Of a stretch of DNA of 57,729 nt, positions 2,656 through 21,160 are shown piece by piece. Source of the stretch: Lysobacteraceae bacterium (GTDB taxonomy: Bacteria > Pseudomonadota > Gammaproteobacteria > Xanthomonadales > Xanthomonadaceae). The stretch is taken from the NCBI GenBank assembly GCA_003505795.1, contig DNXT01000303.1, positions 1 to 57,729 on the forward strand. Direction: 5' to 3'. The stretch's first letter is position 1; every line of letters starts with the position of its first letter. The notes beneath the pieces are model-generated. The model was not told the DNA's origin and made no database searches. It was given only the letters and a program-made list of their open reading frames with translations. A program made the position numbers and the translations under genes.

Positions 2656-2919
2656 ATGGACGCCGACACCGCCATGCAACTGCTGGCAGACACACTGATC
2701 GCGGCCGCCAAGGTCTCCGCGCCGGTGCTGCTGGTCGCGCTGCTGGTCGGCCTGGTGATCTCGGTGGTGCAGGTGGTGACCCAGGTGCAGGAAATGACCC
2801 TGACCTTCATCCCCAAGCTGATCGCCGTCGGCGCGGTGTGCCTGATGCTGGGCGGCTGGATGATCGCCACCACGGTCGAGCTGGCAAAGCGCCTGTTCGA
2901 TTTCGCCGCGGGACTGTGA
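2656..2919 (+). CDS. fliQ: Type III export gate protein FliQ (SctS family)
   Basis: 87 aa with two TM helices and a typical FliQ sequence (LLVALLVGLVISVVQVVTQVQEMTLTFIPKL). Confidence 0.9.
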   Translation: MDADTAMQLLADTLIAAAKVSAPVLLVALLVGLVISVVQVVTQVQEMTLTFIPKLIAVGAVCLMLGGWMIATTVELAKRLFDFAAGL

Positions 2920-2923
2920 CGGC

Positions 2924-3688
2924 ATGGAGTCGATGCAGCCCTTCCTCACCCTGTTCGGCCTGGCGACCCTGCGCTATCTGCCGCTGGCCGTGCTGCCGGC
3001 ACTGTCGCCGCTGGCGTGGGCACCGACCCTGGTACGGATCGTGGTGATGCTGGCGCTGGCATGGCTGACCGTGCTGGCACTGCCCGAAGGTGCGGGCTTC
3101 CAGGGCGGCGGTGGACGCCTGGTGCTGGCCATCCTCGGTGAATTGATGGTGGGCGCGGTATTCGGACTGGCCTTCATGCTGCCCAGCGCCGCGCTGCACA
3201 GCGCCGGCTGGGTGGTGGACATGCAGGCCGGCCTGGGCGCGGCGACGCTGTTCAACCCGGGCTCGGAGTCGGGCGCGGAGTCGCTGCTTGGCCATGCGCT
3301 GATGCTGGCCATGACCGTGCTGTTCTTCGTGCTGGACCTGCACCTGCTGCTGTTCCGCGCCATCGCCGCCAGCACCCAGTGGCTGCCGCCGGGGGGAGCC
3401 GGCATGCGCCTGGACGTGGAGGGCTTCATGCAGCTGCTCGGCGCCAGCTTCGTCGCCGGGGTGATGGTGGTCGCCCCTGTGGTGGTCGGGCTGTTCTGCG
3501 TCGATCTCGGGGTTGGCTATGCCTCGCGCTCGATGCCGCAGGCCAATGTCTACTTCCTGGCGCTACCGCTGAAGATCGCGGTGGCGATCGGACTGCTGGC
3601 GCTGACCCTGGCCTATGCGCCGGCGCTGATGGGGCGGCTGTTCGGCGAGGCGGCCGCACAGGTGCCGTCCGTGCTGGGAGGGCGCTGA
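2924..3688 (+). CDS. fliR: Type III export gate protein FliR (SctT family)
   Basis: 254-aa polytopic membrane protein located between fliQ and flhB. Its stop overlaps the flhB ATG (ATGA). Confidence 0.85.
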   Translation: MESMQPFLTLFGLATLRYLPLAVLPALSPLAWAPTLVRIVVMLALAWLTVLALPEGAGFQGGGGRLVLAILGELMVGAVFGLAFMLPSAALHSAGWVVDMQAGLGAATLFNPGSESGAESLLGHALMLAMTVLFFVLDLHLLLFRAIAASTQWLPPGGAGMRLDVEGFMQLLGASFVAGVMVVAPVVVGLFCVDLGVGYASRSMPQANVYFLALPLKIAVAIGLLALTLAYAPALMGRLFGEAAAQVPSVLGGR

Positions 3689-4749
3689 TGGCGCAGGGCG
3701 ACCAGGACAAGACCGAGAAGCCGACCCAGCATCGCCTGGAGGAAGCGCGGCGCCAGGGCCAGGTGGCCAAGAGTACCGAACTGGTCGGCGTGCTGAGCCT
3801 GCTGGTGTTCTCGGTGACGTTCCTGATGATTGCGGCGGGGCTGGCGACGGCGCTGGCCGGGACCATGCGCCAGCTGATCGGCATGGCCGGAGCGCGGCCG
3901 CATATCGGTGCAGGATTCGCGGCCTGGCTGGGCGAGTTGCATGCCGGCCTCGGCCCGCATCTGATCCCGCTGGTACTCGCGCTGCTGGTGGTCGCGGTGG
4001 CGGCGAACCTGCTGCAGACAGGGCCGATCTTCTCGGCGCACCCGATCAAGCCGGACTTCAAGCGCCTGCATCCCGGCAACGCGGTGAAGCGGCTGTTCTC
4101 GATGCGCGGCCTGTGGGAGCTGGGAAAGCTGACGGTCAAGCTGGGCCTGCTGGCCGCGCTGTGCTGGATGGCTGCGATTGCAGCGCCCGGCTTCGTCGGC
4201 AACATCGCCAATGCGGCGTCGGCGCGGCTGCCGGTCCTGCTGCTCGACAGTGCCTGGAAGACGTCGCTGTACCTGATCCTGGTGCTGGCGCTGATCGCCC
4301 TGGTCGACCTGTTGTTCGTGCGCCGCAATCATCTACGCCAACTGCGCATGAGCCGGCGCGAGCTACGCGACGAAACCAAGCGGCACAACGGCGATCCGGA
4401 GGTCAAGGCCCGGCAGAAGCGCAGCATCCGCGAGCTGCTGAAGAAGGTGCGCGCGGTGCAGCGCGTGGGTGATGCCGACGTGGTACTGACCAATCCCACC
4501 CATTACGCCGTGGCCCTGCAGTACCGGCCCCGGCAGATGCGTGCGCCGATCGTGCTGGCCAAGGGCCGCGGCTTCCTGGCCGGCCGCGTGCGCGACATGG
4601 CGCGCCGCGCCGGGGTGGCGGTCATGCCAGCGCCGCCGCTGGCACGCGCCCTGTATCGCCAGTGCGAGATCGATGCGCCTGTTCCCGAGGCGCTGTATGG
4701 GCAACTGGCGCCGATCTATCGCAAGCTGTATGCGCGGAGGAGTGCCTGA
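3688..4749 (+). CDS. flhB: Export switch protein FlhB (SctU family)
   Basis: The N-terminus is DKTEKPTQHRLEEARRQGQVAKS and the NPTH autocleavage motif is present (VVLTNPTHYAVAL). ATG 3688 overlaps the fliR TGA. Confidence 0.9.
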   Translation: MAQGDQDKTEKPTQHRLEEARRQGQVAKSTELVGVLSLLVFSVTFLMIAAGLATALAGTMRQLIGMAGARPHIGAGFAAWLGELHAGLGPHLIPLVLALLVVAVAANLLQTGPIFSAHPIKPDFKRLHPGNAVKRLFSMRGLWELGKLTVKLGLLAALCWMAAIAAPGFVGNIANAASARLPVLLLDSAWKTSLYLILVLALIALVDLLFVRRNHLRQLRMSRRELRDETKRHNGDPEVKARQKRSIRELLKKVRAVQRVGDADVVLTNPTHYAVALQYRPRQMRAPIVLAKGRGFLAGRVRDMARRAGVAVMPAPPLARALYRQCEIDAPVPEALYGQLAPIYRKLYARRSA

Positions 4750-6812
4750 TGAAGGCCTTGTTCTCGCTGATGTGGTCGGAGAAGCGCGACCTGCTGCTGG
4801 TGCTGCTGATCGTCGGCATCCTGATGGCGTTGTTCGTGCCGGTACCCGCTCCGCTGCTGGACTTCCTGCTGGTGATCAACATCAGCCTGGCGCTGCTGGT
4901 GCTGCTGGTGACTTTCTTCACGGAGTCGCCGCTCAATTTTTCCACGTTCCCGACGTTGCTGCTGATCGCCACGATGTTCCGCCTGGCGCTGAATGTCTCG
5001 GCCACCCGTTTGATCCTCGACGGCGCCGATGCCGGGCGGGTGATCGGCGCGATCGGCTCGTTCGTGATCGGTGGCAACTACGTGGTCGGCATCGTGGTGT
5101 TCCTGATCCTGGTGGTTGTGCAGTACGTGGTGGTCACCAACGGCGCGCAGCGCGTGGCCGAGGTTGCGGCGCGCTTCACCCTGGACAGCATGCCCGGCAA
5201 GCAGATGAGCATCGATGCCGACATGAACATGGGCCTGATCGACGAGCACGAGGCGCGCCGTCGCCGTGCCACGATCGAGAAGGAGGCCAACTTCTACGGC
5301 GCGATGGACGGCGCCACCAAGTTCGTCAAGGGCGACGCCATCGCGGGCATCGTCATCATCCTGATCAACATCGTCGGTGGCCTGGCCATCGGCATCGCCC
5401 AGATGGGCATGCCATGGACGGAAGCGGTGCAGCGCTTCACCCTGCTGACGGTGGGCGACGGCATCGTCACCCAGATTCCGTCGCTGGTGATCGCCGTGGC
5501 CACAGGCATCATCATCACCCGTGCCGCCGCCGACGCGCGGCTCGGCACCGAGATCCCGCGGCAGGTGCTGTCCAGCCCACGCGCCCTGGCGGTGGTGGCG
5601 CTGGCACTGATGGTGATCCTGCTGCTGCCGGGCTTCCCCAAGCTGCCGGTGCTGGTCGTGCTGGCCGGCGTGCTGGCATTGTGCTGGTACGCGTTCCGCC
5701 AGGCGTCGCAGCAGTCGGAAGAGGAGGAAGCCGATGCCGCCCACGCAGCGGATGCGCCGAGCCCGCAGCTGGACGCGCTGCAGCAGGCGCTGCGGGTGGA
5801 ACCGATCGAGATCCGCATGGGCGGCAGCGTGCATCAGCTGCTGTTGGGGCCGACGGGCGACCTGCAGGAGCGCATCGACCACCTGCGCACCCAGGTGGCG
5901 GGAGAGCTGGGTTTCATCGTCCCGCGTATCCAGACCAGCGTACGCCCGGAACTGGACACCCATGCCTACGAGCTGATGGTACAAGGCCATCGCGCAGGGC
6001 AGGGCAGCCTGCTGCCCGACCGCGTCCTGGCCATCAATCCGGGAGGCTCGCGGCCGCTGCTGGAGGGCACCGACACCCGCGATCCTGCATACGGCCTGCC
6101 CGCGCAGTGGATCGATCCGGCGGCACGCCAGTTCGCGCGCGGCGCCGGCTACACGCTGGTCGAGCCGGATACCGTGTTGATCACGCACCTCAACGAGGTG
6201 ATCAAGCGCCAGGCTCCGGAACTGCTGACCCGCGCCGAAACGGAACGGATGATCCGCCGCATGAAGGAGCAATGCGGGCCGATGATCGAGGAGCTGATCC
6301 CGAACATCCTCAGCTACTCCGACGTGCAGAAGACCCTGCAGCTGCTGCTGCGCGAACAGGTCAGCATCCGCAACCTGGAGGCCATCCTCGAAGTGCTGGT
6401 GGATGCCGGACGCAGTGTCAAGGCGCCGGAAGAACTGGCCGAGAAGGTCCGCGAGCGACTCGGACCCGGCATATGCCAGCGCTTCAACGATCCCAAGGGC
6501 GATTTCAACGTGCTGACCCTGGCGCCGGAAGTGGAGCGCGTGCTGATGGGCAACCAGCGCGCGGCCGACGGACGCGGCGCCCTGTTCACCGACATGGCCC
6601 AGTTCGACGCCTTCATCAAGCACCTGGCGCGGCAGTCCGAAGCGATGATGGGCCGCAGCCTCAACCCGGTATTGCTGTGCCCGGCCCCGCTGCGGCGGCC
6701 GCTGCGGGGCCTGATCCAGCGATCGCTGCCGCACGTGGCGGTGATCGGCCTGAACGAAATTCCATCCAGCGCCGTGGTGCGTTCTTTCGCGGCAGTGGGG
6801 ACATCCAGTTGA
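4749..6812 (+). CDS. flhA: Export gate protein FlhA (SctV family)
   Basis: 687 aa with an FHIPEP-type signature (VVQYVVVTNGAQRVAEVAARFTLDSMPGKQMSIDAD) and a large cytoplasmic C-domain. ATG 4749 overlaps the flhB TGA. Confidence 0.95.
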   Translation: MKALFSLMWSEKRDLLLVLLIVGILMALFVPVPAPLLDFLLVINISLALLVLLVTFFTESPLNFSTFPTLLLIATMFRLALNVSATRLILDGADAGRVIGAIGSFVIGGNYVVGIVVFLILVVVQYVVVTNGAQRVAEVAARFTLDSMPGKQMSIDADMNMGLIDEHEARRRRATIEKEANFYGAMDGATKFVKGDAIAGIVIILINIVGGLAIGIAQMGMPWTEAVQRFTLLTVGDGIVTQIPSLVIAVATGIIITRAAADARLGTEIPRQVLSSPRALAVVALALMVILLLPGFPKLPVLVVLAGVLALCWYAFRQASQQSEEEEADAAHAADAPSPQLDALQQALRVEPIEIRMGGSVHQLLLGPTGDLQERIDHLRTQVAGELGFIVPRIQTSVRPELDTHAYELMVQGHRAGQGSLLPDRVLAINPGGSRPLLEGTDTRDPAYGLPAQWIDPAARQFARGAGYTLVEPDTVLITHLNEVIKRQAPELLTRAETERMIRRMKEQCGPMIEELIPNILSYSDVQKTLQLLLREQVSIRNLEAILEVLVDAGRSVKAPEELAEKVRERLGPGICQRFNDPKGDFNVLTLAPEVERVLMGNQRAADGRGALFTDMAQFDAFIKHLARQSEAMMGRSLNPVLLCPAPLRRPLRGLIQRSLPHVAVIGLNEIPSSAVVRSFAAVGTSS

Positions 6813-6822
6813 GGAACATGCG

Positions 6823-7491
6823 ATGAGCGATACGATCCAGGCCCTGGCCCGCGCCCTGAACGTGGATATCCAGGGTATCAACGCGGTCAGCCACAACGTG
6901 GCCAACATCAACACTCCCGGATTCCAGGGTGCGCGCGCGGTGCCGGACTTCGCCGCCACCACCGGGCTGAGCCGGCAGGTGGCGCTGGGCGATGGCCCGC
7001 TGAAGCCCACCGCGCGTACGCTGGACCTGGCGCTGCGCGGCGACGGCTTCTTCGTCCTCGACCGTGCGGGCCAGCCGCTGCTTACCCGCGCCGGCAGCTT
7101 CGTGCGTGATGCCGAGGGCTATCTGGTGGCGCGCTCGGGCGACCGGGTAATGACCGACGCCGGCGCCCTGCTGCTGCCCGAGGGCGAGGTGCGGGTCGAC
7201 GAGCAGGGGGTGGTCTGGTCCGAGGACCGTCGCCTGGCCCAGCTGTCGATCATGGCGGTGGCCGATGCCAGCCAACTGCAGGCCGTCGACGGCGGCTACC
7301 GCTACGCGGGCAACCTGCTGGCCTGGAACGGCCGAGTGCAGCAGGGCGCCATCGAACAATCCAACGTGGATGCCGCCGCGCAGACCCTGCAACTGATCGA
7401 ACTGACCCGGCACGCCGAGTCCGTGCAGCGCGTGGTGTCCATCTACGACCGCACCCTGGACGTGGGCATCAACCGCATTGGCGACAACTAA
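6823..7491 (+). CDS. flgF: Flagellar basal-body rod protein, FlgF-like
   Basis: The N-terminal rod motif (SHNVANINTPGFQG) and C-terminal motif (AIEQSNVDAAAQTLQLIELTRHAESVQRV) are both present. Confidence 0.75.
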   Translation: MSDTIQALARALNVDIQGINAVSHNVANINTPGFQGARAVPDFAATTGLSRQVALGDGPLKPTARTLDLALRGDGFFVLDRAGQPLLTRAGSFVRDAEGYLVARSGDRVMTDAGALLLPEGEVRVDEQGVVWSEDRRLAQLSIMAVADASQLQAVDGGYRYAGNLLAWNGRVQQGAIEQSNVDAAAQTLQLIELTRHAESVQRVVSIYDRTLDVGINRIGDN

Positions 7492-7497
7492 GGAGCT

Positions 7498-8271
7498 TTG
7501 ACCGTGATCGATGCACTCTACATCTCGTCGACCGGCCTGCGCAGCCAGCAGGAGCAGATCGACGTCATCTCCAACAACGTGGCCAACATGCAGACCCCGG
7601 GCTTCAAGCGCGGGCGGGTCAACTTCGCCGAGATCGCGGCCGCGCCGATGCCGGGCGAGACCATGGGTACCATGGTTGGCACCCATGGCGGCGGCGCACG
7701 GGTGATGTCGACCTCGCAGGAGTTCGTGGCCGGTGCGCTGCAGCCCACCCGCGGCCCGCTGGACATTGCCATCGACGGCAACGGGTTCTTCGAGCTGGAA
7801 GACCTCAACGGCAACCGCTTCTACACCCGCTCCGGCCGCTTCCACATGGATGACCAGGGCTATCTCGCCGCAACCAACGGCATGCGCCTGACCGGCAGCC
7901 CGCAGGTTCCGCAGGGTGCCAGTGAGGTGCTGATCTCGGCCAATGGCGAACTCAGCGCGCTGCTGGACGGCGGCGAGGAGCGCAGCGTGCTCGGCAGTAT
8001 CGAACTGGTGCTGTTCGCCACCACCGACGGCCTGGAATCGATTGGCGACAACCTGTTCCGCGCCGGCACGCGCAACGGCGGGCCGTTGGCGTCGGTCGCC
8101 GGGGAGGGAGGAGCCGGGCGCCTGCAGCAGGGCTACCTGGAGGCCGCCAACGTCGACATGATCGACGAGATGACCGGCCTGGTGCTGGCGCAGCGCGCCT
8201 ATCAGCTCAATGCCCGGGTCCTGCAGGCATCGGACCAGGTGCTGGAAACCATCAACAACCTGCGCCGCTGA
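7498..8271 (+). CDS. flgG: Distal rod protein FlgG
   Basis: TTG start after AGGAG. Contains SNNVANMQTPGFKR and the C-terminus GYLEAANVDMIDEMTGLVLAQRAYQLNARVLQASDQVLETINNLRR. Confidence 0.85.
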   Translation: MTVIDALYISSTGLRSQQEQIDVISNNVANMQTPGFKRGRVNFAEIAAAPMPGETMGTMVGTHGGGARVMSTSQEFVAGALQPTRGPLDIAIDGNGFFELEDLNGNRFYTRSGRFHMDDQGYLAATNGMRLTGSPQVPQGASEVLISANGELSALLDGGEERSVLGSIELVLFATTDGLESIGDNLFRAGTRNGGPLASVAGEGGAGRLQQGYLEAANVDMIDEMTGLVLAQRAYQLNARVLQASDQVLETINNLRR

Positions 8272-8984
8272 TGCACCACCTCCTGCGCTCCTGCCTGGCC
8301 TTGTCCGTGCTGCTGCCGTCCGTCGCGGCCGCGGCGACGGCGGTGCCTGCCGATCGCCTGATCGCAGCCGCCCAACTGCGGTTGCAGGAACGCGCCGCGG
8401 GCATCCCGGGCGAGTGGCAGTTCCTGCCTGCCGGCACGGTCGGACCATCGACGGTGGAGCAGGACGGCGAACTCCGCGTCGAGGCCGGCGCCATCGACGG
8501 ACGCTGGCCACGCAGCCGCGTTGGCGTGCCGGTGCGGATCTTGGCGGGAGATGCGTTGCAGCAGGCGCGGATGCTGTGGTTCACCGTGCACGTCTGGCGC
8601 CAGGCGCAGGTGTATGCACGCGACATGCAGGCAGGTGAGCGCTCCGAAGACTTGGAGACGCAGGTGCGCCGCATCGACATCGCAGGGCACGGCGCCGAAG
8701 CGGCAATGCCGGACGGCGTCGGACTGCAGCCAGGCTTGCGCCTGCTGCGCAGCGTGCGCGCCGGACAACCGGTGCTGGCCAGCGACTTCGCGCAGATGCC
8801 GCTGGTGGCACGCAACACGCAGGTCGCGCTGCAGGTGCGGCGTGGCGGGGTGATGCTCAATACGGCGGCGACGGCGAGAGCGGACGCGGCCATCGGTGAA
8901 CGGGTGAGCGTGCTGCCCAGCGGGGCCACGCAATGGATCGAGGCGACGGTAAGGGGCCGCAATGAGGTGGCGATTGAAGACTGA
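8271..8984 (+). CDS. flgA: P-ring assembly chaperone FlgA
   Basis: Has a signal peptide and a C-terminal SAF-like part (GERVSVLPSGATQWIEATVRGRNEVAI). It sits upstream of flgH/flgI. Confidence 0.7.
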   Translation: MHHLLRSCLALSVLLPSVAAAATAVPADRLIAAAQLRLQERAAGIPGEWQFLPAGTVGPSTVEQDGELRVEAGAIDGRWPRSRVGVPVRILAGDALQQARMLWFTVHVWRQAQVYARDMQAGERSEDLETQVRRIDIAGHGAEAAMPDGVGLQPGLRLLRSVRAGQPVLASDFAQMPLVARNTQVALQVRRGGVMLNTAATARADAAIGERVSVLPSGATQWIEATVRGRNEVAIED

Positions 8985-9561
8985 CTCCATCATCGCGGCA
9001 GCGCTCGTGGCGCTGCTCGCCGGCCTGCCCGGCGCCGGCGCCGCGCAGCAAAGCCTGATCGAACCCGGCACCTACCGGGGCATCGCGGCCGACCGCCGCG
9101 CCTACCGAATAGGCGACATCCTGACCGTGAACGTGCTCGAAGCGGCGCGTGCGCGCTCCAGCGCCGCGACCGATGCCAATTCCGACGTGCGCGTGCGCGC
9201 TTCGGCGTCCACGCCCGGCTACCAAGGCAGCGCGACCGGCACGCTGAGCGCAGGCAGTACCGGCGGAGCCGAGACCTCGCGCGCCGGCGAGCTGCGTACC
9301 CAGTTGTCGGTACGGGTAACGGACGTGCTGCCGGACGGGACCCTGGCAGTCGAGGGCGCACAGTCGCTGGTCATCAATGGCGAGGACCAGAAGATCATGC
9401 TCAGCGGACTGGTGCGGCCGGAGGACATCCGCAGCGACAACAGCCTGTGGTCGCACCGCATCGCCAACGCCCAGGTGGAGTTCAGCGGCTCGGGCGTGGT
9501 CAGCCAGTCGCAGCGGACGAGCATCGTATACCGCGCCCTGAAATGGCTGAGGCTGCTGTGA
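8962..9561 (+). CDS. flgH: L-ring protein FlgH (no cysteine anywhere in the ORF)
   Basis: FlgH motifs are present (YRIGDILTVNVLE, LAVEGAQSLVINGEDQKIMLSGLVRPEDI). Confidence 0.8.
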   Translation: MRWRLKTDSIIAAALVALLAGLPGAGAAQQSLIEPGTYRGIAADRRAYRIGDILTVNVLEAARARSSAATDANSDVRVRASASTPGYQGSATGTLSAGSTGGAETSRAGELRTQLSVRVTDVLPDGTLAVEGAQSLVINGEDQKIMLSGLVRPEDIRSDNSLWSHRIANAQVEFSGSGVVSQSQRTSIVYRALKWLRLL

Positions 9562-10673
9562 GGGTCCTGCTGCTCCTGGCGCTGGCGTGCCTGCCGTCCC
9601 TGGTCTCCGCCGCCGAAACGGGCGATGTGCGGGTCAAGGACATCGCCCGCATCGCCGGCGTGCGCGACAACCCGCTGACCGGGTATGGCCTGGTGTTCGG
9701 CCTGTCCGGTTCCGGCGACTCGCCGCGCAACCGCGCCACCCTGCAGTCGGTGTCCAACACCCTGCGCAACTTCGGCGTCAACGTCGAGCTGGGCGACCTG
9801 TCGAGCCGCAATGTGGCGGCGGTGCTGGTCACCGCCCGGCTGCCGGCGTTCGCCGAGCCGGGTCAGCAACTGGACGTGCAGGTGGCTTCTTCCGGCGACG
9901 CCCGCAGCCTGGTGGGCGGCACCCTGATGCTGGTTCCGCTGAGCGGTCCGGACGGACGGGTGTATGCCATCGCGCAGGGACCGATCTCGGTGGGCGGCTA
10001 TCAGTTCGAGGCCATCACCGCCTCGGTGCAGAAGAACCATCCAACGGTCGGCTGGATCCCGGCGGGCGCGACGGTGGAGCAAGGCTCGCCGCTTGGAGTG
10101 GTCGGCGACGGGCGCTCGCTGAGCGTGCTGCTCAACGAGCCGGACTTCACCGTTGCTCAGCATATGACCCAGGCCATCCGCGCCGCCCTGCCAGGCACCA
10201 CGGCCGTGGCCGACCATGCGGGCAAGGTCACGGTGGGCTTCGGCGAGGAGCATCCGGACCTGGTCGCGCGCATCGCCCAGATCGAGAACATCCGCATCGT
10301 TCGCGAACGACGCTCGCGGGTGGTGGTCAACGAACGCACCGGCACCATCGTCGCCGGCGGCGACATCCGCATCGGCCGGGTGAGCATTACCCACGGCGAC
10401 TTGCGCGTGGAGGTCAATACGCGCTACAGCGTGTCGCAGCCAGACGGTCTGCTGCTGCGCCCGGGCAGCGATGTGCGCACGGTACTGGTGCCGGAGAGCC
10501 GCATCGATGTCCAGGAAGGCGTTGCGCCGGTGGTATCGGTTGCCGAGGGCACCAGCGTGGCCGAATTGGTTTCGGCTCTGCGCACGATCAAGCTGACGAC
10601 CCGCGACGTCATCGCGGTGCTGCAATCGATCAAGGCGGCCGGCGCGCTCGATGGCGAACTGGTCATCCAATGA
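9543..10673 (+). CDS. flgI: P-ring protein FlgI
   Basis: A signal peptide is followed by VRVKDIARIAGVRDNPLTGYGLVFGLSGSGDS, and the C-terminus is LRTIKLTTRDVIAVLQSIKAAGAL. The start at ATG 9543 overlaps the flgH end. Confidence 0.9.
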   Translation: MAEAAVRVLLLLALACLPSLVSAAETGDVRVKDIARIAGVRDNPLTGYGLVFGLSGSGDSPRNRATLQSVSNTLRNFGVNVELGDLSSRNVAAVLVTARLPAFAEPGQQLDVQVASSGDARSLVGGTLMLVPLSGPDGRVYAIAQGPISVGGYQFEAITASVQKNHPTVGWIPAGATVEQGSPLGVVGDGRSLSVLLNEPDFTVAQHMTQAIRAALPGTTAVADHAGKVTVGFGEEHPDLVARIAQIENIRIVRERRSRVVVNERTGTIVAGGDIRIGRVSITHGDLRVEVNTRYSVSQPDGLLLRPGSDVRTVLVPESRIDVQEGVAPVVSVAEGTSVAELVSALRTIKLTTRDVIAVLQSIKAAGALDGELVIQ

Positions 10674-10682
10674 CAGGGGGAA

Positions 10683-13564: not shown

Positions 13565-13565
13565 G

Positions 13566-14240: not shown

Positions 14241-15562
14241 GTCTGCAGGTTCGACTGCAGTCCGCGCTGGATCGTACCGAGATGCATCGGCGACAGGGAC
14301 GCATCGTCGCCTTCAACGGCCTGGTCATCGAGGCGCAGGGACCGGACGCCGACATCGGCGAGCTGTGCGACATCGTGCCCGGCAACGGCCGCGCGACAGT
14401 GCCGGGCGAGGTGGTGGGCTTCCGGAAGGAACATGTGCTGCTGATGCCGTATGGCAATGTCAGCGGCATCTCCGCGCGCAGCCTGATCCGTGCCACGGGG
14501 CGGCCGCTGGATGTGCCGGTCGGCAAGGAACTGCTCGGCCGCGTGGTGGACGCCTTCTGCCGGCCGCTGGACGACAAGGGTGCGCTGCAGCCGGGCGGGC
14601 GTTATCCGCTGCACGCCGCGCCGATCAATCCGATGCAGCGCCAGGGCATCAGCGAGGTGCTGGAGACTGGACTGAGCGCGGTGGACACGCTGCTGACGTT
14701 GGGCAGAGGACAGCGCGTGGGCGTGTTCGCCGGCAGCGGTGTCGGCAAGAGCACCCTGCTGGGCATGCTGGCCCGGCATGTGCAGGCCGACGTCATCGTG
14801 CTGTGCCTGGTCGGCGAACGCGGACGCGAGGTCGGCGACTTCATCCGCGATACGCTGGGCGAGACGGGACTGCGCCGCGCGGTGGTCATGGCCGCCACCG
14901 CGGACCAGCCCGCCCTGGTACGCACCCATGCGGTGCACGCTTCGCACGCGGTGGCCGAGTATTTCCGCGACGAGGGCAAGTCGGTCCTGCTGGTGGTCGA
15001 TTCGATCACCCGCTTCGCGATGGCCCAGCGCGAGATCGGCCTGGCCATCGGCGAGCCGCCGACCTTCCGCGGCTATACGCCATCGGTGTTCGGCTGGCTC
15101 CCACGCATCGTCGAGCGCTGCGGCCGCCATGGCCGCGGCGATATCACCGCCATCTACAGTGTGCTGGTGGAGGGCGACGACATGAACGAACCCATCGCCG
15201 ACCACATGCGCGCCGTGCTGGACGGGCACATCGTGCTGACTCGCGAACTGGCACTGCGCGGCCATCTTCCCGCCATCGATGTCCTGCAGAGCACCAGCCG
15301 CCTGCTGCACACCCTTGCCCGGCCGGAAGAACTGGCGCTGGCCCGGGAGGCGCGACGCCTGCTGGCGCAGTACGAGGCGGCGCGCGACATGATCGAGCTC
15401 GGTGCCTACCAGCGTGGCAGCAACCAGGCGCTGGACCGGGCGGTCGAGGCCTGCAGCGCGCTCGACTCGCTGTTGTGCCAGTCGCCGGAGACGGCGGTGT
15501 CACGCCTACAGGCGCTGCAGCAGCTGGGCCGCATCGTCTCCGCCGGAGGCACGCATGCATAA
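14237..15562 (+). CDS. fliI: Type III export ATPase FliI
   Basis: Walker A (GSGVGKST) and Walker B region (VLLVVDSITRFAMAQREI) are present, and the protein is F1-beta-like throughout. Confidence 0.95.
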   Translation: MSLQVRLQSALDRTEMHRRQGRIVAFNGLVIEAQGPDADIGELCDIVPGNGRATVPGEVVGFRKEHVLLMPYGNVSGISARSLIRATGRPLDVPVGKELLGRVVDAFCRPLDDKGALQPGGRYPLHAAPINPMQRQGISEVLETGLSAVDTLLTLGRGQRVGVFAGSGVGKSTLLGMLARHVQADVIVLCLVGERGREVGDFIRDTLGETGLRRAVVMAATADQPALVRTHAVHASHAVAEYFRDEGKSVLLVVDSITRFAMAQREIGLAIGEPPTFRGYTPSVFGWLPRIVERCGRHGRGDITAIYSVLVEGDDMNEPIADHMRAVLDGHIVLTRELALRGHLPAIDVLQSTSRLLHTLARPEELALAREARRLLAQYEAARDMIELGAYQRGSNQALDRAVEACSALDSLLCQSPETAVSRLQALQQLGRIVSAGGTHA

Positions 15563-16007
15563 GCACCGGCTACAGCAGATGCAGGCACTGGCGCGCGTGC
15601 GCGGGCTGGCCGAGCAGCGGGCAGAATTGGTGACGCAGCAGGCGGCGCAGGCGCTGCGACACGCGAACGACCTGCTGCAGGAGGCGAACGACCGGGTGGA
15701 CGCGGCGACCCGCTGGAAGGCAGGGTCCGCCGTGGCGGCCGGGCTACGTCTGGGCCTGTACGAGCAAGCGCTGGTGTCCGAGCAGGTCCTGTCGGTTGCC
15801 GCCGAATCCGCCGACAGCACCCGGTCGCGGGTCAGGCAGGCTCACGAGCAGAGCAGGGAGCAGTTGCTCCAGGCCAGCCGCGCGCTCGAGGTCGCACAGC
15901 GACGGCTGCAACGCGGAACGCGCGCCGCTGCAGACGCGATGGAGCGCAAGCAGAGCGACGACGCGGCCGATCTCTGGTTGTCAAGGAAGCTCCATGCAGA
16001 TCGGTGA
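15555..16007 (+). CDS. fliJ: FliJ-like export chaperone/stalk
   Basis: 150-aa predicted coiled coil directly after fliI, overlapping it by 8 nt. Confidence 0.6.
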   Translation: MHKHRLQQMQALARVRGLAEQRAELVTQQAAQALRHANDLLQEANDRVDAATRWKAGSAVAAGLRLGLYEQALVSEQVLSVAAESADSTRSRVRQAHEQSREQLLQASRALEVAQRRLQRGTRAAADAMERKQSDDAADLWLSRKLHADR

Positions 16008-16725
16008 TCCAGCCATCCACGCCGTCACGCCGATCGCGGAACGGCAGCCGCAGGGCAAGCCGTCGAACCGCCAGGACTTTGAGCGGACGCTCGCTGCGGA
16101 TGCGCCTGCCGCCGATGTCCCGGCGTCGGCGGGCGTGCACGGAGACGCCATAGATGTGCCGACTGGTGCCGACGCACCCGTTGCACAGGATGGAGCCGGC
16201 CTGGACGGGCTGCCGGGCGGGGTGCTCTATCCTTGGCAGTTGATGGCGCAGACAGCAATGTCCCAGCTCGGCCAGCATGCGTACAGCACTGCCGCCCGGG
16301 CCGATGGCCTGACGACCCACGACGGGATACAGATCGTTCAGAAGGGCACGATATCCAATACTGCAGTTGCCCTCGCTGCCGCCGTTGCCTCCCATGGCAC
16401 GACTGAGGTTCATGCCGTAACCCTCGCGAGAAGCGGCGATACGGCATCCGCCATCATGAAAGACATGCGTGGCACCGCATCCGCAGGCGCCGAGCAGGCG
16501 TTGGCCTCGCTGCCCACCTGGTCCAAGCGTTTCCAGCGTCGGGTCGAGGACGCCCAGGGCCGTGCCACGGTCTGGCTGCGTGACTACCAGCTGGGCGAGC
16601 AGGGGCTGGCCTCCACCATCGACGAGATCATCGCGTCTTACGGCCCGTCGCGGCCGGTCTGGCGCATCGTGGTCAACGGCAGCGAAGTCTGGCGTCGACC
16701 GTCCAATCCATCCGAGGAGACGTAA
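15994..16725 (+). CDS. Short hook-length-control-like protein (FliK/SctP position), 243 aa
   Basis: The call is positional: it lies between fliJ and flgD. It has an Ala/Pro/Asp-rich low-complexity N-half and a structured C-terminus (ATVWLRDYQLGEQGLASTIDEIIA). Confidence 0.4.
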   Translation: MQIGDPAIHAVTPIAERQPQGKPSNRQDFERTLAADAPAADVPASAGVHGDAIDVPTGADAPVAQDGAGLDGLPGGVLYPWQLMAQTAMSQLGQHAYSTAARADGLTTHDGIQIVQKGTISNTAVALAAAVASHGTTEVHAVTLARSGDTASAIMKDMRGTASAGAEQALASLPTWSKRFQRRVEDAQGRATVWLRDYQLGEQGLASTIDEIIASYGPSRPVWRIVVNGSEVWRRPSNPSEET

Positions 16726-17141
16726 TGGCCATCGACGCAATCGGTGCCGTGGTGAACAACGGCAGTTCCAGCGTACAGGCGCGCAACACCATCGACCAGG
16801 AAGGCTTCATCAAGCTGTTCCTGTCGCAGCTGCAGTTCCAGGATCCGCTGGAGCCGGTGGACAACCGCGAATTCCTCGCACAGTTGGCGCAATTCAGCAA
16901 TCTGGAACAGTCCCGCCAGCTGAGCATCAACATGGAAGGCATGCTGACCATGGAGTCGTCCAGCCAGGCGCTGGGTTTGCTCAACCGCTCGGTGGACATC
17001 GTGCAGGCGGCCGGCGGCAACATCGCCGGCACTGTCACCGCCGTGCAGTTCACAACCTCCGGCCCGGAACTGACGGTGAACACCGCCGTCGGCGTGCTGA
17101 CCGGCATTCGACTGCCCCAGGTGAGCCTGGTCAAACTCTAG
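16725..17141 (+). CDS. flgD: Hook capping protein FlgD
   Basis: The FlgD signature FIKLFLSQLQFQDPLEPVDNREFLAQLAQFSNLEQ is present. Confidence 0.85.
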   Translation: MAIDAIGAVVNNGSSSVQARNTIDQEGFIKLFLSQLQFQDPLEPVDNREFLAQLAQFSNLEQSRQLSINMEGMLTMESSSQALGLLNRSVDIVQAAGGNIAGTVTAVQFTTSGPELTVNTAVGVLTGIRLPQVSLVKL

Positions 17142-17151
17142 GAATCCAACC

Positions 17152-18309
17152 GTGTTCCAAGCATTGTTCAACAGCCTCTCCGGCCTGTTCGGCTTCTCAC
17201 GCAGCCTGGATACGGTCAGCAACAACGTCGCAAATATGAATACCCCCGGCTTCCGGGGGCGCGACTCGTTCTTCGAGAACGTTGGTCGCGACCATGGCAC
17301 CCGGATCGCAGGCGAGGGCATGCGCACCGCCGCAGGCGACCTGCGCCAGACCGGCAATGCCACCGACGTGGCGGTGGACGGCGCCGGCTTCTTCGCGTTG
17401 CGCGACGAGTCGGGGACGCTGCACTACACGCGGGCCGGCCAGTTCATGTTCGACGACGACGGCATCCTGATCGACAGCGTCAGCCGCTTCCAGGTGATGG
17501 CACTGGACAGCTCGGGCAATCTTGCGTCGATCTCGCTGGAAGGCTATCGCTCGTTGCCTGCCGAGCCATCGACCAAGATCAACTTCAGCGGCAACCTCGC
17601 GCCGGCGGAGGAGACACACAAGGTCGAAGGCATCACGATCTACGACGCTTCCGGCAAGAGCCACGTGCTCACGGCGCAGTTCACCAACAACAAGAACGTG
17701 ACGCCGAACAGTTTCCTGGTCAAAGTCACCGATGCCCAAGGCAGCGAGGTGGGCAATGGCGAGCTGCGTTTCAGCGTGTCCGGGACTCTGGAGCCGGGCT
17801 ACGGCTCCATCGCGCTGGCGCTCGAGTTCGAGGGGACGGCGCAGGGGGTGGAGCTGTCGTTCGGCACACCGGGTACCTTCCAGGGCACGACCAGCCTGGC
17901 CGGCCTCAGCAACAACGTCAGCGCCACCGTGGCCGATGGCCGGCCGGTGCTGGGCATTACCCAGATGTCCTTCGACGAGAAAGGTACGCTGCAATTCAAC
18001 TATGGCACCAGCGAGAAACGCGAAGGCCAGAGGTTGGCGCTGGCCAGCTTCATCAGCGAAAGCACCCTGGACTTCAGTGGCGGACGCTTGGTATCCGGTG
18101 CCGATGCCCAGCGCCGGCTACTGGCGCATGCCGATACCGGAGGCCTGGGCAAGGTCATGGGTGGCACGCTGGAGATGTCCAACATCGACCTGACCCAGGA
18201 GTTCGCCGACATGCTGATCATCCAACGCGGCTACCAGGCCAGTTCGCGGGTGATGACCGTCAGCAACGAGATGATCGAGCAGCTCTACAACAGTACCCGC
18301 GGCGGCTGA
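17152..18309 (+). CDS. flgE: Hook protein FlgE (385 aa)
   Basis: GTG start. The N-terminal motif is SNNVANMNTPGFRG and the C-terminus is LEMSNIDLTQEFADMLIIQRGYQASSRVMTVSNEMIEQLYN. Confidence 0.85.
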   Translation: MFQALFNSLSGLFGFSRSLDTVSNNVANMNTPGFRGRDSFFENVGRDHGTRIAGEGMRTAAGDLRQTGNATDVAVDGAGFFALRDESGTLHYTRAGQFMFDDDGILIDSVSRFQVMALDSSGNLASISLEGYRSLPAEPSTKINFSGNLAPAEETHKVEGITIYDASGKSHVLTAQFTNNKNVTPNSFLVKVTDAQGSEVGNGELRFSVSGTLEPGYGSIALALEFEGTAQGVELSFGTPGTFQGTTSLAGLSNNVSATVADGRPVLGITQMSFDEKGTLQFNYGTSEKREGQRLALASFISESTLDFSGGRLVSGADAQRRLLAHADTGGLGKVMGGTLEMSNIDLTQEFADMLIIQRGYQASSRVMTVSNEMIEQLYNSTRGG

Positions 18310-18313
18310 ACAG

Positions 18314-19054
18314 ATGATACGGATCGGTTGGCAGGGAACGACGCGCGCGGCGCAGCTGAAACATTTGCTTGGCACAGGATTGCAGGCCTGGCGCGACGAC
18401 TGGTTGTCCGGGCGGTGGCCCGATGCCTGCATCAAGGAATGGGATCGGCAGGTGGAACCGGGCGACGGCAGCCGCCTCGATTGGTTGCTGCGCGACGCAC
18501 AAGGGGCGGCGATGTGGATCCGGGCAGATGCCGCAGTGGAGCAGCTCCTCGGTCGCGGCGTACTGGAACTGGACTGTGGACAGGGAGACCGCCTGGTCCG
18601 CGAGGTGGGCACGCGCTGCTTCGCCGCGTTGTGCGCGCAACTGTGGGGAGGCGAGGACACGCCGGCCGCGGAACTGGAAAACCGTGACGATTTCCGCGAG
18701 TTCGAGCTCCGTCACGGAGGCCTTGGGTTCTGCATCGATGGCCTTGCCGGCACCATCCGCATCGCCGTCAATCGTTCCTGGTGCGTGGAGCGGCTGCCGT
18801 TCTCCACACCGAACCTGGCGCGGCCGGCGCTATCGACCCGGCGCAGTGCGCTCGCGCCGGCTGCAGTCAAGATCCAGGCGGCTATCGAGCTGGGCAGCAT
18901 CGAGCTGCTCGATTCGCTGCAGCTCCAGGTGGGCGAAGTACTGCTCACCGACGTCTCGCGCAACCCTGCCGTCACGCTCTCCACCAGCTCCGGGCGCCTG
19001 GCAACCGGGCGGATCGATCCGGATCGGCAGGCCAGGACGGTCGTACTGGATTGA
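18314..19054 (+). CDS. C-ring protein with C-terminal SpoA domain (FliM/SctQ-like), lacking the FliM N-terminal CheY-P binding peptide
   Basis: The C-terminal SpoA-like segment is IQAAIELGSIELLDSLQLQVGEVLLTD...LSTSSGRLATGRI. It sits upstream of fliN. The N-terminus is unlike canonical FliM. Confidence 0.55.
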   Translation: MIRIGWQGTTRAAQLKHLLGTGLQAWRDDWLSGRWPDACIKEWDRQVEPGDGSRLDWLLRDAQGAAMWIRADAAVEQLLGRGVLELDCGQGDRLVREVGTRCFAALCAQLWGGEDTPAAELENRDDFREFELRHGGLGFCIDGLAGTIRIAVNRSWCVERLPFSTPNLARPALSTRRSALAPAAVKIQAAIELGSIELLDSLQLQVGEVLLTDVSRNPAVTLSTSSGRLATGRIDPDRQARTVVLD

Positions 19055-19110
19055 CCTCACCTTGCGCGGCCGCCTGCAGACCGCATCGCGAAATTCCTCT
19101 GGACGAACCC

Positions 19111-19365
19111 ATGAACAAAGAAATCGCAATCAACGAGAAGGACCTGAGCCTGCTGGGGCACGTCAAGGTTTCCTTGGTCGCCGAAATCGGCACTGCCGAA
19201 CTGACCGTGGAGCAGTTGTTCGCGCTGGGCAGCAAGGATCTGGTCACCCTTGACCAAGGCGTGGATGCGGAAGTGACCCTGTTGCTGAACGGTCGTCCCG
19301 TCGCCCGCGGCGAACTGGTGGCGATCGAGGACAAGCTGGGCATCCGCATCACGGAACTGGCCTGA
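19111..19365 (+). CDS. fliN: C-ring protein FliN (SpoA domain only, 84 aa)
   Basis: Sequence VSLVAEIGTAELTVEQLFALGSKDLVTLDQGVDAEVTLLLNGRPVARGELVAIEDKLGIRITEL is typical of FliN. Confidence 0.85.
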   Translation: MNKEIAINEKDLSLLGHVKVSLVAEIGTAELTVEQLFALGSKDLVTLDQGVDAEVTLLLNGRPVARGELVAIEDKLGIRITELA

Positions 19366-19367
19366 GC

Positions 19368-19742
19368 ATGCTCGTTGTGGCCCAACCGATACCATTCCGC
19401 TCCGATCCGGTGATCGGTGGCGACCAGGTGCTGTGGATCGTTCTGGCGACGGTCGGCCTGCTGGCGCTGGCCTTCGTCGTCCTCGTGCATCTGCGCAGGA
19501 AGGGTTGGCTGAATGCCTGGTCGGTCGGCAGGCCGCTACCGCAAGCACAGGTGCCGCCACGCTGGCAGGTGCAGAGCCAGCGCATCAGTCGTCGGACCAC
19601 AGTACACACGCTGAGTCGGGAGGGGAGTGCACTGCTGGTAGTGGAATCGCCCAACGGTGTCGCGGTGACTGCGCTGGACACGAAACCCGCCGTCCCGTCC
19701 ACCGAGGGAGGGATCGCCGATGGCACCAGCCAGTCTGAGTAA
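19368..19742 (+). CDS. fliO: FliO-like single-pass membrane protein
   Basis: Single TM helix (VLWIVLATVGLLALAFVVLVHL) in a gene located between fliN and fliP. Confidence 0.55.
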   Translation: MLVVAQPIPFRSDPVIGGDQVLWIVLATVGLLALAFVVLVHLRRKGWLNAWSVGRPLPQAQVPPRWQVQSQRISRRTTVHTLSREGSALLVVESPNGVAVTALDTKPAVPSTEGGIADGTSQSE

Positions 19743-20469
19743 AGTGCTTGCCGGCGTCACCCTGGTCGGCTTGCTGCTGGCCGGAGAGAGTCACGCGGCC
19801 GCACCGGCCGTGGACGCCGTGGGCGAAGCGGTGAAGCAGGACCTGGCACCGGCGCTGCGCACGTTCCTGGTGCTGAGCTTCATGTCGTTCATTCCGATCG
19901 CGTTGATCGGCATGACCTCGTTCACCCGCATCATCGTGGTGCTGGCGCTGTTGCGGCATGCATTGGGCATCCCGCAGACGCCGCCAAACAGCGTGCTGAT
20001 CACCCTGGCGATGTTCCTGACCCTGTTCTCGATGGGACCCGTGGCCGACCGCGTCTACAGCGAGGCCATCACACCCTATGTCACCGAACAGGTCAGCGCG
20101 AGCACTGCGATGGAACGCGCCAGCGAGCCCATCCGTGGCTTCATGGTGCGCCAGACCCGCGAATCCGACCTGCTGGCCGTGCTGGAGATGGCGCGGATCG
20201 AGCCGCCGAAGACCATGCAGGACATCCGCTTCACCCATCTCGCAGCGGCCTTCCTGCTCAGCGAGCTGAAGACGGCGTTCCAGATCGGCTTCGTCATTTT
20301 CCTGCCGTTCCTCCTGATCGACCTGGTGGTCGCGGCGATACTGATGGCGCTGGGCATGATCATGCTGCCACCGACGACCATCAGCCTGCCGCTGAAGATC
20401 CTGCTGTTCATCCTGATCGATGGCTGGGTGCTGGTATCCAGGACACTGCTGGGCAGCTTCTGGACCTGA
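19720..20469 (+). CDS. fliP: Export gate protein FliP (SctR family)
   Basis: A signal sequence is followed by FTRIIVVLALLRHALGIPQTPPNSVLITLAMFLTLFSM and LSELKTAFQIGFVIFLPFLLIDLVVA. Confidence 0.95.
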   Translation: MAPASLSKVLAGVTLVGLLLAGESHAAAPAVDAVGEAVKQDLAPALRTFLVLSFMSFIPIALIGMTSFTRIIVVLALLRHALGIPQTPPNSVLITLAMFLTLFSMGPVADRVYSEAITPYVTEQVSASTAMERASEPIRGFMVRQTRESDLLAVLEMARIEPPKTMQDIRFTHLAAAFLLSELKTAFQIGFVIFLPFLLIDLVVAAILMALGMIMLPPTTISLPLKILLFILIDGWVLVSRTLLGSFWT

Positions 20470-20485
20470 GGCACAACCGGTCTAC

Positions 20486-21160
20486 ATGGAATCGATCGAA
20501 CAGGAGTTGTGGCGGCGCCATGCGCAGGAAGGCGACACGGAGGCCCGTGATTTCCTGTTCCTGCGCTACAGCCCATGGGCCCGTTCGGTGGCGGCAGCGG
20601 TCGCGCGGCGGACTGGCCTGCGGATGATGGACTGGGCCGATCACGCGCAGAATGCCCAGGTCGGCTTGCTGGAGGCGATGTCGCGCTACGACGCCAGCCT
20701 CGGCGTGGACTTCATGGCCTACGCCAAGCCGCGCGTGCGCGGTGCCGTGTTCAACGGCATGCGCTGTTTTCTGCGGGCCGATGCCGCTGACAGCCGCAAG
20801 CGGATCTCGGTCGACCGCCTGGAATCGTTGCACGAATACGCGGACGACCCCCTGACAGCTTTCGTCGACACGGTGGTGGGGCTCGGACTGGGCCTCTTGC
20901 TGGACGGCGATTTGAGGGGTGACGACACCTCTGCCGGCATCGATGGGTACAGCCCGGTGCTGCGCGATGCGCTGCTCAAGGTACCTGGCCGGCATCGCGA
21001 AATCCTGATCGCACATTACCTCCGACAAATCCCGTTCCAGGATGTTGCGCGTGAGCTCGGGGTAACGAAGGGCAGAGTGTCGCAGCTACACAAGGAAGGC
21101 CTGGGCATGCTGCGCGGGATACTGAGGGAACGTAGATATGACAGAGATGCGTTCTTTTAG
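20486..21160 (+). CDS. fliA: FliA/sigma-28 family RNA polymerase sigma factor, last gene of the operon
   Basis: Region 2 (VGLLEAMSRYDASLGVDFMAYAKPRVRGAV) and the region 4.2 HTH (FQDVARELGVTKGRVSQLHKEGLGMLR) are present. The stop TAG at 21158-21160 overlaps the dif-like site. Confidence 0.8.
   Translation: MESIEQELWRRHAQEGDTEARDFLFLRYSPWARSVAAAVARRTGLRMMDWADHAQNAQVGLLEAMSRYDASLGVDFMAYAKPRVRGAVFNGMRCFLRADAADSRKRISVDRLESLHEYADDPLTAFVDTVVGLGLGLLLDGDLRGDDTSAGIDGYSPVLRDALLKVPGRHREILIAHYLRQIPFQDVARELGVTKGRVSQLHKEGLGMLRGILRERRYDRDAFF

Follow-up and report, generated by a model that had tools for sequence, protein, structure and literature searches.

A flagellum-type export cluster linked to a giant RHS gene in a Stenotrophomonas-like member of the Xanthomonadaceae

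A set of 22 flagellar genes, followed by a gene for a sigma-70-family factor, was reported in 2015 from Lysobacter enzymogenes, L. capsici and L. gummosus and judged apparently non-functional (De Bruijn et al., 2015; PMC4657364). Other accounts state that the Lysobacter genes are not organized as an operon (PMC7277350) and list flgB, fliE, fliG and fliM as lost (PMC9927559); taken together, the lists of lost genes comprise flgB, fliE, fliG, fliM, fliH and fliJ (PMC9927559; PMC7688988). Lysobacter species with the cluster have no flagella, and fliC, fliD, flgKL and motAB are missing from them (PMC9927559). Work on L. enzymogenes OH11 found expression of the export components, a requirement for them in the secretion of FlgD, and impaired secretion of three yeast-toxic proteins by a fliI mutant (Fulano et al., 2020; PMC7688988). 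Here we analyze a stretch of 57,729 nucleotides from a Lysobacteraceae bacterium (GCA_003505795.1, contig DNXT01000303.1; hereafter the window), which carries a flagellar-type gene cluster at positions 2656-21160. This locus is the Stenotrophomonas-type ortholog of the FT3SS-like cluster (FT3SS, flagellar type III secretion system) of Lysobacter, where the system itself is already known. An original prediction, made from the DNA sequence alone, had carried the caveat that Lysobacter species retain flagellar type III secretion system (T3SS) genes, and the literature bears this out (PMC4657364; PMC7688988).

Very probably, the cluster codes for a working exporter that derives from a flagellum and is the ortholog of the Lysobacter system. 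The best overall explanation, which we consider likely, is a self-contained flagellum-derived type III export machine, in the form of a non-rotating hook-basal body with late genes linked to a giant RHS gene. The cluster consists of 25 intact open reading frames (ORFs), all in one direction, densely packed and coupled through their starts and stops (Table 1). Pfam matches and ORF coordinates agree with the predicted single unit of 25 co-directional genes from fliQ to a sigma factor, with the qualification that the unit probably begins one gene earlier. All six of the predicted start/stop overlaps are real, and the widest gap is 56 bp (between the fliM-like gene and fliN), as had been estimated. 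The gene order is non-canonical, again as predicted, with all genes in one operon. Predicted terminators are not enriched within it (10, versus 6.8 +/- 2.7 in shuffles). The Walker A motif of FliI, AGSGVGKS, fits [AG]xxxxGK[ST] when read by eye and was missed by a stricter pattern.

Seven of the ORFs lack an above-threshold Pfam match and were named by position together with weak or ortholog-level evidence. In an alignment of orthologs, the FliK-position protein varies over its Pro/Ala-rich N-terminal part, and its last ~60 residues form a conserved C-terminal domain; protein and profile searches gave no match in Pfam or the PDB. For the FliJ-like protein, the scan covered 11 proteins (10 orthologs and the window copy), and the profile of this position has no significant PDB sequence match. 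A Flagellin_N match (E=0.0012) in the pooled ortholog scan came from one coiled-coil member of the FliJ-like group and was discarded as noise. The terminal sigma factor, whose gene closes the cluster at 70 related loci too, scores highest with FliA/WhiG models, at 71.7 bits versus a cut-off of 189.6. The predicted FliA-type identity thus stands as a FliA/WhiG likeness and falls far short of the family threshold.

The transcription unit most likely starts at the gene for the TPR protein TPR382, immediately before fliQ. Only 9 bp separate the stop of TPR382 from the start of fliQ, and TPR382 lies directly 5' of fliQ in all Xanthomonadales loci examined, Lysobacter included. We identified TTGACA-N19-TAAAGT as the candidate promoter of the TPR382-to-sigma operon. 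It is unique in the window and also occurs 5' of TPR382 in most loci, including those of Stenotrophomonas, Xanthomonas, Pseudoxanthomonas and Rhodanobacter; with its 19-nt spacer it escaped the standard sigma-70 scan. On the 3' side of the motif, a conserved CAGGGGGAYAC followed by a leader of ~170-190 nt to TPR382 (window 1302-1500) recurs across genera. Rfam has no match in this conserved segment, which may be a regulatory 5' leader. The TPR382 protein weakly resembles SctY (39 bits) and LcrH/SycD.

Lacking from the whole 57.7-kb window, according to Pfam, are flagellin, FliD, FlgK/L, MotAB and chemotaxis genes, as the original prediction had it. FlgJ is not part of the cluster gene set, and neither FlgM nor FlgN is detectable in the cluster. 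The remaining genes predicted to be missing (FliS/T and FlhF/G) are likewise not in the window. Stator, junction and filament genes were not identified in the 10 kb 3' of the sigma gene in two relatives, nor upstream of the RHS gene in Stenotrophomonas MYb238. A tblastn search of 102 loci, which is a weak test, returned no flagellin-like sequence.

The cytoplasmic ring is reduced as well. The profile of the FliG-like protein matches FliG_N best in the PDB (5tdy_B, E=0.008), and seven of the 15 PDB matches are FliG; FliG_N itself is found, weakly, in three of 12 orthologs. With 149 residues the protein is too short for the torque-generating C-terminal domain, in agreement with the truncated FliG that had been proposed, of which we recovered a FliG_N-type signal only. 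The original prediction also named two SpoA-type C-ring proteins. One is fliN; the second, the FliM-like protein, has no Pfam match in the window copy and is recognized through its orthologs, 14 of 17 of which have the SpoA domain FliMN_C. The FliM domain PF02154 was found in none of these 17, and the N-terminus (MIRIGWQG...) has no CheY-binding motif of the LSQxEIDALL type, so that the proposed CheY-blindness, too, fits the lack of both the FliM middle domain and the CheY-binding N-terminus. Single-sequence AlphaFold2 models were poor for both the FliG-like (pLDDT 52) and the FliM-like protein (pLDDT 43.6). The machine would be non-rotating because the FliG torque domain, the stator and the CheY interface are all lacking. 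The predicted non-rotating secretion or hook-only device therefore gains from the reduced FliG and FliM and from the missing parts; what does not follow is that a host with the cluster is non-flagellated, because Xanthomonas arboricola CFBP 2528 has a canonical flagellar cluster in addition.

A true second flagellum, with filament, junction and stator encoded elsewhere or borrowed under the same sigma factor, would account for the complete rod, rings and hook, the NPTH motif kept in FlhB and the FliA-like sigma factor with its sigma-28-type promoters (below), and some hosts do carry fliC and motAB elsewhere (PMC4686621). We consider it improbable in view of the FliG-like protein without torque domain, the FliM substitute without FliM domain and the failure, in the weak test above, to find a flagellin-like sequence. 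Moreover, cluster-bearing Lysobacter have neither these genes nor flagella (PMC9927559), and only RHS and the pair TPR186-orf129 were found behind the sigma-28-type motif.

An injectisome-like, non-flagellar T3SS is extremely improbable. The reduced, SctQ-like C-ring, the lack of a filament and the faint SctY- and SycD-like character of the TPR proteins are what such a system would share. However, no secretin (SctC), needle (SctF) or translocon families were identified by Pfam among the window proteins; FlgH and FlgI take the secretin's place, and the FlgBCFG rod, FliE, FlgD and FlgE are present. The window FlhA also scores higher against solved structures of flagellar FlhA (484, 437 and 435 bits) than against injectisome SctV (385 and 330 bits).

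The closest relatives of the window FlhA are those of Stenotrophomonas metagenome-assembled genomes (MAGs) and isolates (80-89% identity), followed by Pseudoxanthomonas (78%), Rhodanobacter, X. arboricola and X. sacchari (75%), and Arenimonas, Novilysobacter and L. enzymogenes (69%). The same gene order was found in 14 GTDB species representatives, two X. sacchari strains, L. enzymogenes and Novilysobacter, and synteny extends over Stenotrophomonas, Pseudoxanthomonas, Xanthomonas, Rhodanobacter, Arenimonas, Lysobacter, Novilysobacter and Achromobacter. In addition, 80 metagenomic loci share the 3' half (flgD-flgE-fliM-like-fliN-fliO-fliP-sigma). The literature searched holds no information on the motility of S. 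nitritireducens. Among the matches listed from 1.84 billion representative proteins, the best full-length FlhA outside the group has 51% identity and comes from Achromobacter deleyi and A. marplatensis, which have a 25-gene cluster in the same order; most flagellar FlhA among these matches are 37-44% identical. The machine is thus flagellar in type and would form a separate lineage, its split from canonical FlhA being read from this search of representatives.

All 28 genes from TPR186 to the sigma factor have ratios of nonsynonymous to synonymous substitution (dN/dS) of 0.05-0.58 in pairwise comparisons with four relatives; synonymous sites are near saturation and the ratios are rough. The lowest values are those of FlgD, FlgE, FliP, FliN and FlgI (0.06-0.11 for flgD/flgE), with 0.19-0.28 for TPR186 and 0.23-0.58 for the FliG-like gene. 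X. arboricola pv. juglandis CFBP 2528 carries the cluster (L013; L numbers designate individual loci of the comparison), and its canonical flagellar cluster (with fliC, flgB, flgE, fliE and fliM) is non-functional through a nine-gene deletion (PMC4686621). With both present, at least one host lineage that has a canonical flagellar locus possesses this paralogous system as a second one. The cluster thus stands apart as a paralog of the canonical system instead of being debris of flagellar loss, a point that, like the dN/dS result, we did not find in the literature searched.

Genes listed as lost in Lysobacter appear to have counterparts. In Novilysobacter erysipheiresistens (L105, positions 15959-21316) the positions of flgB, fliE, fliG, fliH and fliJ hold syntenic, divergent ORFs of the expected sizes, of which FliE is Pfam-positive; the fliM position falls beyond the end of L105. 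On this comparison of sequences, the lists of lost genes probably reflect divergence and the limits of BLAST rather than loss.

These observations bear on the 2015 view of Lysobacter, by which the locus is the decaying, non-functional remnant of an ancestral flagellar locus. Filament, junction, stator and switch functions are indeed missing, several components are too divergent for Pfam, and the published verdicts of non-function (PMC4657364) and gene loss (PMC9927559) point the same way. Yet all 25 ORFs are intact and translationally coupled, every gene (the divergent ones included) is within the above dN/dS range, and the order of the 25 genes holds from Xanthomonadales as far as Achromobacter, where FlhA identity is 51%. 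X. arboricola has a canonical cluster alongside this one (PMC4686621), the OH11 proteins are expressed and needed for secretion (PMC7688988), and the supposedly lost genes have syntenic counterparts. We regard decay as very improbable.

The machine is linked to the RHS gene by position. The original prediction had not taken in this upstream gene, the TPR genes or the sigma-28-type promoter, which bear most on function. RHS sequence upstream of the window was read from contig DAIPHD010000001.1 (GCA_036771515.1), in which the window is reversed. On the same strand, the order is RHS end, TPR186, orf129, TPR382, fliQ. Proteins of this RHS family have ~4,300-4,900 residues, with ~50 YD repeats, He_PIG/Big_9 immunoglobulin (Ig)-like domains and LysM; the last 2513 residues of the window RHS contain 10 He_PIG domains, Big_9 and RHS repeats. 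Their N-terminus is conserved from residue 1 over ~35 residues (M-x-A-V-x-S/T-G-N-G-L-G-L-F/G-N-T/S-S-L-x-Q-L-G) and has neither a Sec signal peptide nor a PAAR domain, and no recognisable signal for any other secretion route was identified in the proteins. RHS homology was found upstream of the cluster in 15 of the 16 Xanthomonadales loci with at least ~2 kb of upstream sequence. In 11 more distant metagenomic loci, RHS instead starts 130-1100 bp 3' of the sigma gene; the linkage therefore survives rearrangement. In Stenotrophomonas MYb238 the island opens with the RHS gene, which adjoins divergently oriented housekeeping genes. The C-terminus of RHS varies among relatives: that of MYb238 is a CdiA-type RNase A toxin (RNase_A_bac), a faint CdiA_C is present in L. 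capsici, and one X. sacchari strain has a SUKH immunity-type gene near RHS. Nothing relevant on a link of Rhs proteins to FliA or to a flagellar T3SS was found in the literature searched, nor was the linkage of cluster and RHS by position and shared promoter.

In four distant metagenomic loci TPR genes are also found 3' of sigma, both TPR186 and TPR382 in three (L054, L056 and L061) and TPR382 only in L052. The position of TPR and RHS genes after the sigma gene in distant loci suggests a cyclically permuted order of one module. The RHS of L. enzymogenes (CP040656.1; L106, 4515-19000) is divided between two ORFs, one of 1881 and one of 2999 residues; downstream lie orphan pieces of RHS and small ORFs of immunity-like character, as is typical of a polymorphic toxin locus. 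The Ralstonia pseudosolanacearum megaplasmid CP051172.1 encodes a stand-alone LysM-RHS of 3500 residues with the same N-terminal motif, adjoining genes for a lytic transglycosylase and a NEL effector.

A promoter motif is shared by RHS and TPR186. The upstream regions of RHS have in common CTAAAC-N16-RGAYTR, which is near the sigma-28 consensus TAAA-N15-GCCGATAA. The site before TPR186 is the sole match in the window (0.01 expected). Across 106 loci (~1.4 Mb, both strands), for which base composition gives a rough chance expectation of ~0.35 matches, 13 loci have exactly one match each. All 13 are on the gene strand, directly 5' of RHS or 63-104 bp 5' of TPR186, and the TPR186 sites are an independent confirmation because they were not used to derive the pattern. 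A position weight matrix recovered weaker versions 5' of TPR186 in four further loci. Where RHS is unlinked to the cluster, the genes keep both the N-terminus and a sigma-28-type site ~80-115 bp upstream; this applies to L. capsici, to L. enzymogenes (upstream site CTAAACTTTTCCGAAAATCTGCCGAGTA) and to R. pseudosolanacearum. In R. pseudosolanacearum the site is near-canonical (TAAA-N15-TTGGATAA; L020, 9862-10001), and the LysM-RHS family may belong to the ordinary flagellar regulon of flagellated beta-proteobacteria. Arenimonas loci have an extra minus-strand site of this type between orf129 and TPR382 (L015, 4466; L017, 6690), which suggests a divergent late gene.

Of the two small genes behind the promoter, TPR186 is a candidate export chaperone, with a score of 28 bits, below the cut-off, against the SycD/LcrH chaperone model, and orf129 is predicted to be its co-transcription partner. 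No match to orf129 was found in Pfam, NCBIfam or the PDB. An anti-sigma factor FlgM was not identified in the cluster with Pfam or NCBIfam models, and orf129 is the sole positional candidate. FlgM is at most a guess from position for orf129: hhalign with a Salmonella FlgM query gave 1.4% probability and aligned the first seven residues only.

We propose the following mechanism. The operon would be transcribed from the TTGACA-N19-TAAAGT motif before TPR382, and its products would assemble the FliPQR/FlhAB gate, the FliHIJ ATPase complex, the MS ring, the rod, the L/P rings, the hook cap and the hook, with a cytoplasmic ring made of the FliG N-terminal-domain protein, an SctQ-like substitute for FliM, and FliN. 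The resulting hook-basal body would not rotate. Its hook could serve as an open secretion conduit, given that the tip would stay open and release late substrates because FlgK, FlgL and FliD are lacking. Completion of the hook would switch the specificity of FlhB via the FliK-position protein, after which the sigma factor would drive TPR186-orf129 and RHS as late genes, so that RHS would be regulated in the place of a flagellum's flagellin. RHS might then be held by TPR chaperones, exported unfolded and folded outside the cell. Export of RHS by the machine is a possibility that we advance tentatively, from features of the sequences. RHS is the best cargo candidate because it lacks both a Sec signal and a PAAR domain, its N-terminus is conserved, it is rich in Ig and LysM domains of extracellular type, and it ends in toxins in relatives.

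Several points weigh against this scheme. The absence of filament and stator genes applies to the window and the flanks of relatives, which leaves the scheme partly supported. The names of the FliG-like, FliJ-like and FliK-position proteins have a weak or positional basis, and the reading of sigma-28-type promoters by the cluster's own sigma factor is deduced from their resemblance to the sigma-28 consensus. Xanthomonas loci have neither TPR186 nor orf129. The window RHS has no C-terminal toxin region or immunity gene: the protein (L001, 1-7544) ends inside LysM, homology to MYb238 stops at residue 3576 of 4322, and ~745 residues of the latter are lacking, which could be a deletion or a MAG assembly artefact. 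The DPxGL cleavage motif does not precede the C-terminus in the RHS family. To traverse the channel, an RHS shell that folds from more than 4,000 residues would need to be unfolded, and export of RHS by the machine appears not to have been reported in the literature searched.

Further points of this kind would fit a secretion or regulatory device whose RHS gene is merely co-located or co-regulated in a competition island, with another exit route for the protein. In L. enzymogenes, L. capsici and Ralstonia the RHS gene lies apart from the cluster, the published secretome candidates of OH11 are proteins other than RHS (PMC7688988), and very large beta-rich proteins are unusual as type III substrates. 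Against this stand the retention of the linkage in two arrangements and across wide divergence, the sigma-28-type promoter shared even where the genes are unlinked, and an RHS protein without recognisable signal for another route. We think this alternative rather unlikely.

If RHS is the cargo of the export machine, the cluster would represent an unrecognised delivery route for Rhs proteins via a flagellar T3SS, a flagellum turned weapon. It is possible, if doubtful, that this lineage of machines (Xanthomonadales and at least Achromobacter) swapped the filament for a giant RHS toxin that is activated by the sigma factor after hook completion and exported against bacteria or fungi. The Lysobacter "flagellar remnants" would then be recast as a dedicated weapon, present also in flagellated Xanthomonas and Stenotrophomonas. 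The cargo hypothesis is directly testable in L. enzymogenes OH11, for which fliI, flhA and flhB mutants and secretion assays exist. Independently of RHS, the cluster is a conserved module of 26-28 genes under purifying selection, which at least one plant pathogen (X. arboricola) carries in addition to a normal flagellar locus, and several genes reported lost in Lysobacter seem to persist there as diverged versions.

Table 1. Features of the window (positions in the 57,729-nucleotide stretch).
Feature	Position	Strand	Basis or remark
RHS/YD-repeat gene, 3' end (4865-residue protein)	1-199	+	gene starts ~14.4 kb upstream of the window
Sigma-28-type motif CTAAAC-N16-RGAYTR (= TAAA-N15-xxxGAYTA)	241-268	+	56 bp before TPR186 start codon
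TPR186, small TPR protein	325-885	+	TPR families; orthologs
orf129, conserved small protein	895-1284	+	11 orthologs, 51% mean column identity
TTGACA-N19-TAAAGT, candidate promoter	1302-1332	+	unique in window; conserved
TPR382, TPR protein	1498-2646	+	Pfam; synteny
Export gate block (fliQ, fliR, flhB, flhA)	2656-6812	+	
fliQ	2656-2919	+	Pfam
fliR	2924-3688	+	Pfam
flhB	3688-4749	+	Pfam; NPTH autocleavage motif
flhA	4749-6812	+	Pfam
Rod and L/P rings block (flgF to fliE)	6823-11739	+	
flgF	6823-7491	+	Pfam
flgG	7498-8271	+	Pfam
flgA	8271-8984	+	Pfam
flgH	8962-9561	+	Pfam
flgI	9558-10673	+	Pfam
FlgB-like	10683-11063	+	TIGR01396 E=7e-4 (weak); Flg_bb_rod in 3/10 orthologs
flgC	11060-11443	+	Pfam
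fliE	11440-11739	+	Pfam
fliF, MS ring, 457 residues	11742-13115	+	Pfam
FliG-like, 149 residues	13115-13564	+	weak FliG_N-type signal and position
ATPase complex block (fliH, fliI, fliJ-like)	13566-16007	+	
FliH	13566-14240	+	weak FliH and SctL model matches
fliI	14237-15562	+	Pfam; Walker A AGSGVGKS
FliJ-like	15555-16007	+	position; FliJ PF02050 E=0.002 in 1/11 proteins scanned
FliK-position protein	15994-16725	+	position only
flgD, 138 residues	16725-17141	+	Pfam
flgE (hook)	17152-18309	+	Pfam
FliM-like	18314-19054	+	SpoA C-terminus via orthologs
fliN	19111-19365	+	Pfam
FliO-like	19368-19742	+	FliO in 2/10 orthologs
fliP	19720-20469	+	Pfam
Sigma factor, FliA/WhiG-like, divergent	20486-21160	+	Pfam sigma-70 family; NCBIfam models
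Repressor-like gene, prophage region	21162-21527	-	
dif half-site, 12 bp ACATAATATACA, left junction of inovirus	21164-21175	.	repeat match
Complete dif	28193-28218		repeat partner ACATAATATACA inside at 28196-28207

Beyond the sigma gene, 21161-28192 is occupied by a filamentous (Inoviridae) prophage of ~7 kb, parts of which have 70-73% identity to XacF13, Xf109 and SMA6. A direct repeat of 12 bp, ACATAATATACA, lies on either side of the prophage, and a complete dif is found only at its far side. The operon had been said to end on a dif site; this does not hold, as the prophage junction has only a half-site. Before integration of the phage, the end of the operon would have adjoined dif. The region from 28 to 57.7 kb encodes metabolic genes, TonB-dependent receptors, a GntR regulator, a citrate transporter and an extracytoplasmic function (ECF) sigma/FecR pair, with no flagellar or chemotaxis genes (Pfam). 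A typical iron-uptake signalling module at 45289-49567 combines the ECF sigma factor with a FecR-like anti-sigma factor and an STN-domain TonB-dependent receptor, and three further TonB-dependent receptor genes were identified (37897-40278, 50264-52537 and 55182-57713).

The locus shares with the Lysobacter FT3SS-like system its orthologs in order, ending in a sigma factor, the absence of fliC, fliD, flgKL and motAB, the order TPR-fliQ-fliR-flhB-flhA-flgF-flgG in L. enzymogenes (FlhA 69%) and, in Novilysobacter, the full layout including RHS. It differs in its host lineage, which is nearest Stenotrophomonas (closest FlhA at 86-89%), and in that the published accounts describe scattered remnants, without mention of RHS, the TPR genes or sigma-28-type promoters.

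The canonical flagellum of the Salmonella or Xanthomonas type combines a hook-basal body with a sigma-28/FlgM checkpoint for late genes. Export gate, ATPase, MS ring, rod, L/P rings, hook cap, hook and the NPTH motif of FlhB are common to both, as are TAAA-N15-xxxGAYTA promoters; the sigma factor of the cluster resembles FliA but is divergent. Unlike it, the cluster is one operon in a non-canonical order, its FliG is without middle and C-terminal domains, and it lacks the FliM domain, MotAB, FlgK/L, FliD, FliC, FlgJ and a detectable FlgM/FlgN. RHS, instead of flagellin, lies behind its late promoter. Filament-less hook-basal bodies are also known from Buchnera aphidicola and have been proposed to be protein exporters. 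There, too, basal body and hook persist although flagellin and motor genes are gone, and the structure is interpreted as a device for secretion, but it arose through reductive decay of a single flagellar system, whereas the cluster in the window is a conserved paralog that has a sigma factor of its own and a cargo candidate linked to it.

Flag-2 and lateral clusters, and the cluster of Xanthomonas CFBP 8444 (bioRxiv 10.1101/2022.10.10.511549), are likewise extra flagellar-type clusters that accompany a canonical one in some hosts. They carry their own lateral flagellin (lafA/fliC) and are expected to build flagella, whereas the window cluster is without flagellin, junction and stator. The "second atypical flagellar cluster" of CFBP 8444, considered as a candidate for the same system, was set aside as the flagellin-bearing lateral type. 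The Lysobacter Rhs toxin published in PNAS in 2025 is a PAAR-Rhs that belongs to a type VI secretion system (T6SS) and was set aside as unrelated. With T6SS Rhs toxins such as the PAAR-Rhs Le1893 of L. enzymogenes (PMC11762177), the RHS of the cluster shares a YD/RHS shell, variable C-terminal toxins in relatives and, in X. sacchari, a SUKH gene. It differs in having no PAAR and no terminal DPxGL, in being three to four times larger, with He_PIG/Big_9 and LysM, and in its distinct N-terminus, its sigma-28-type promoter and its linkage to a flagellar-type T3SS rather than to a T6SS.

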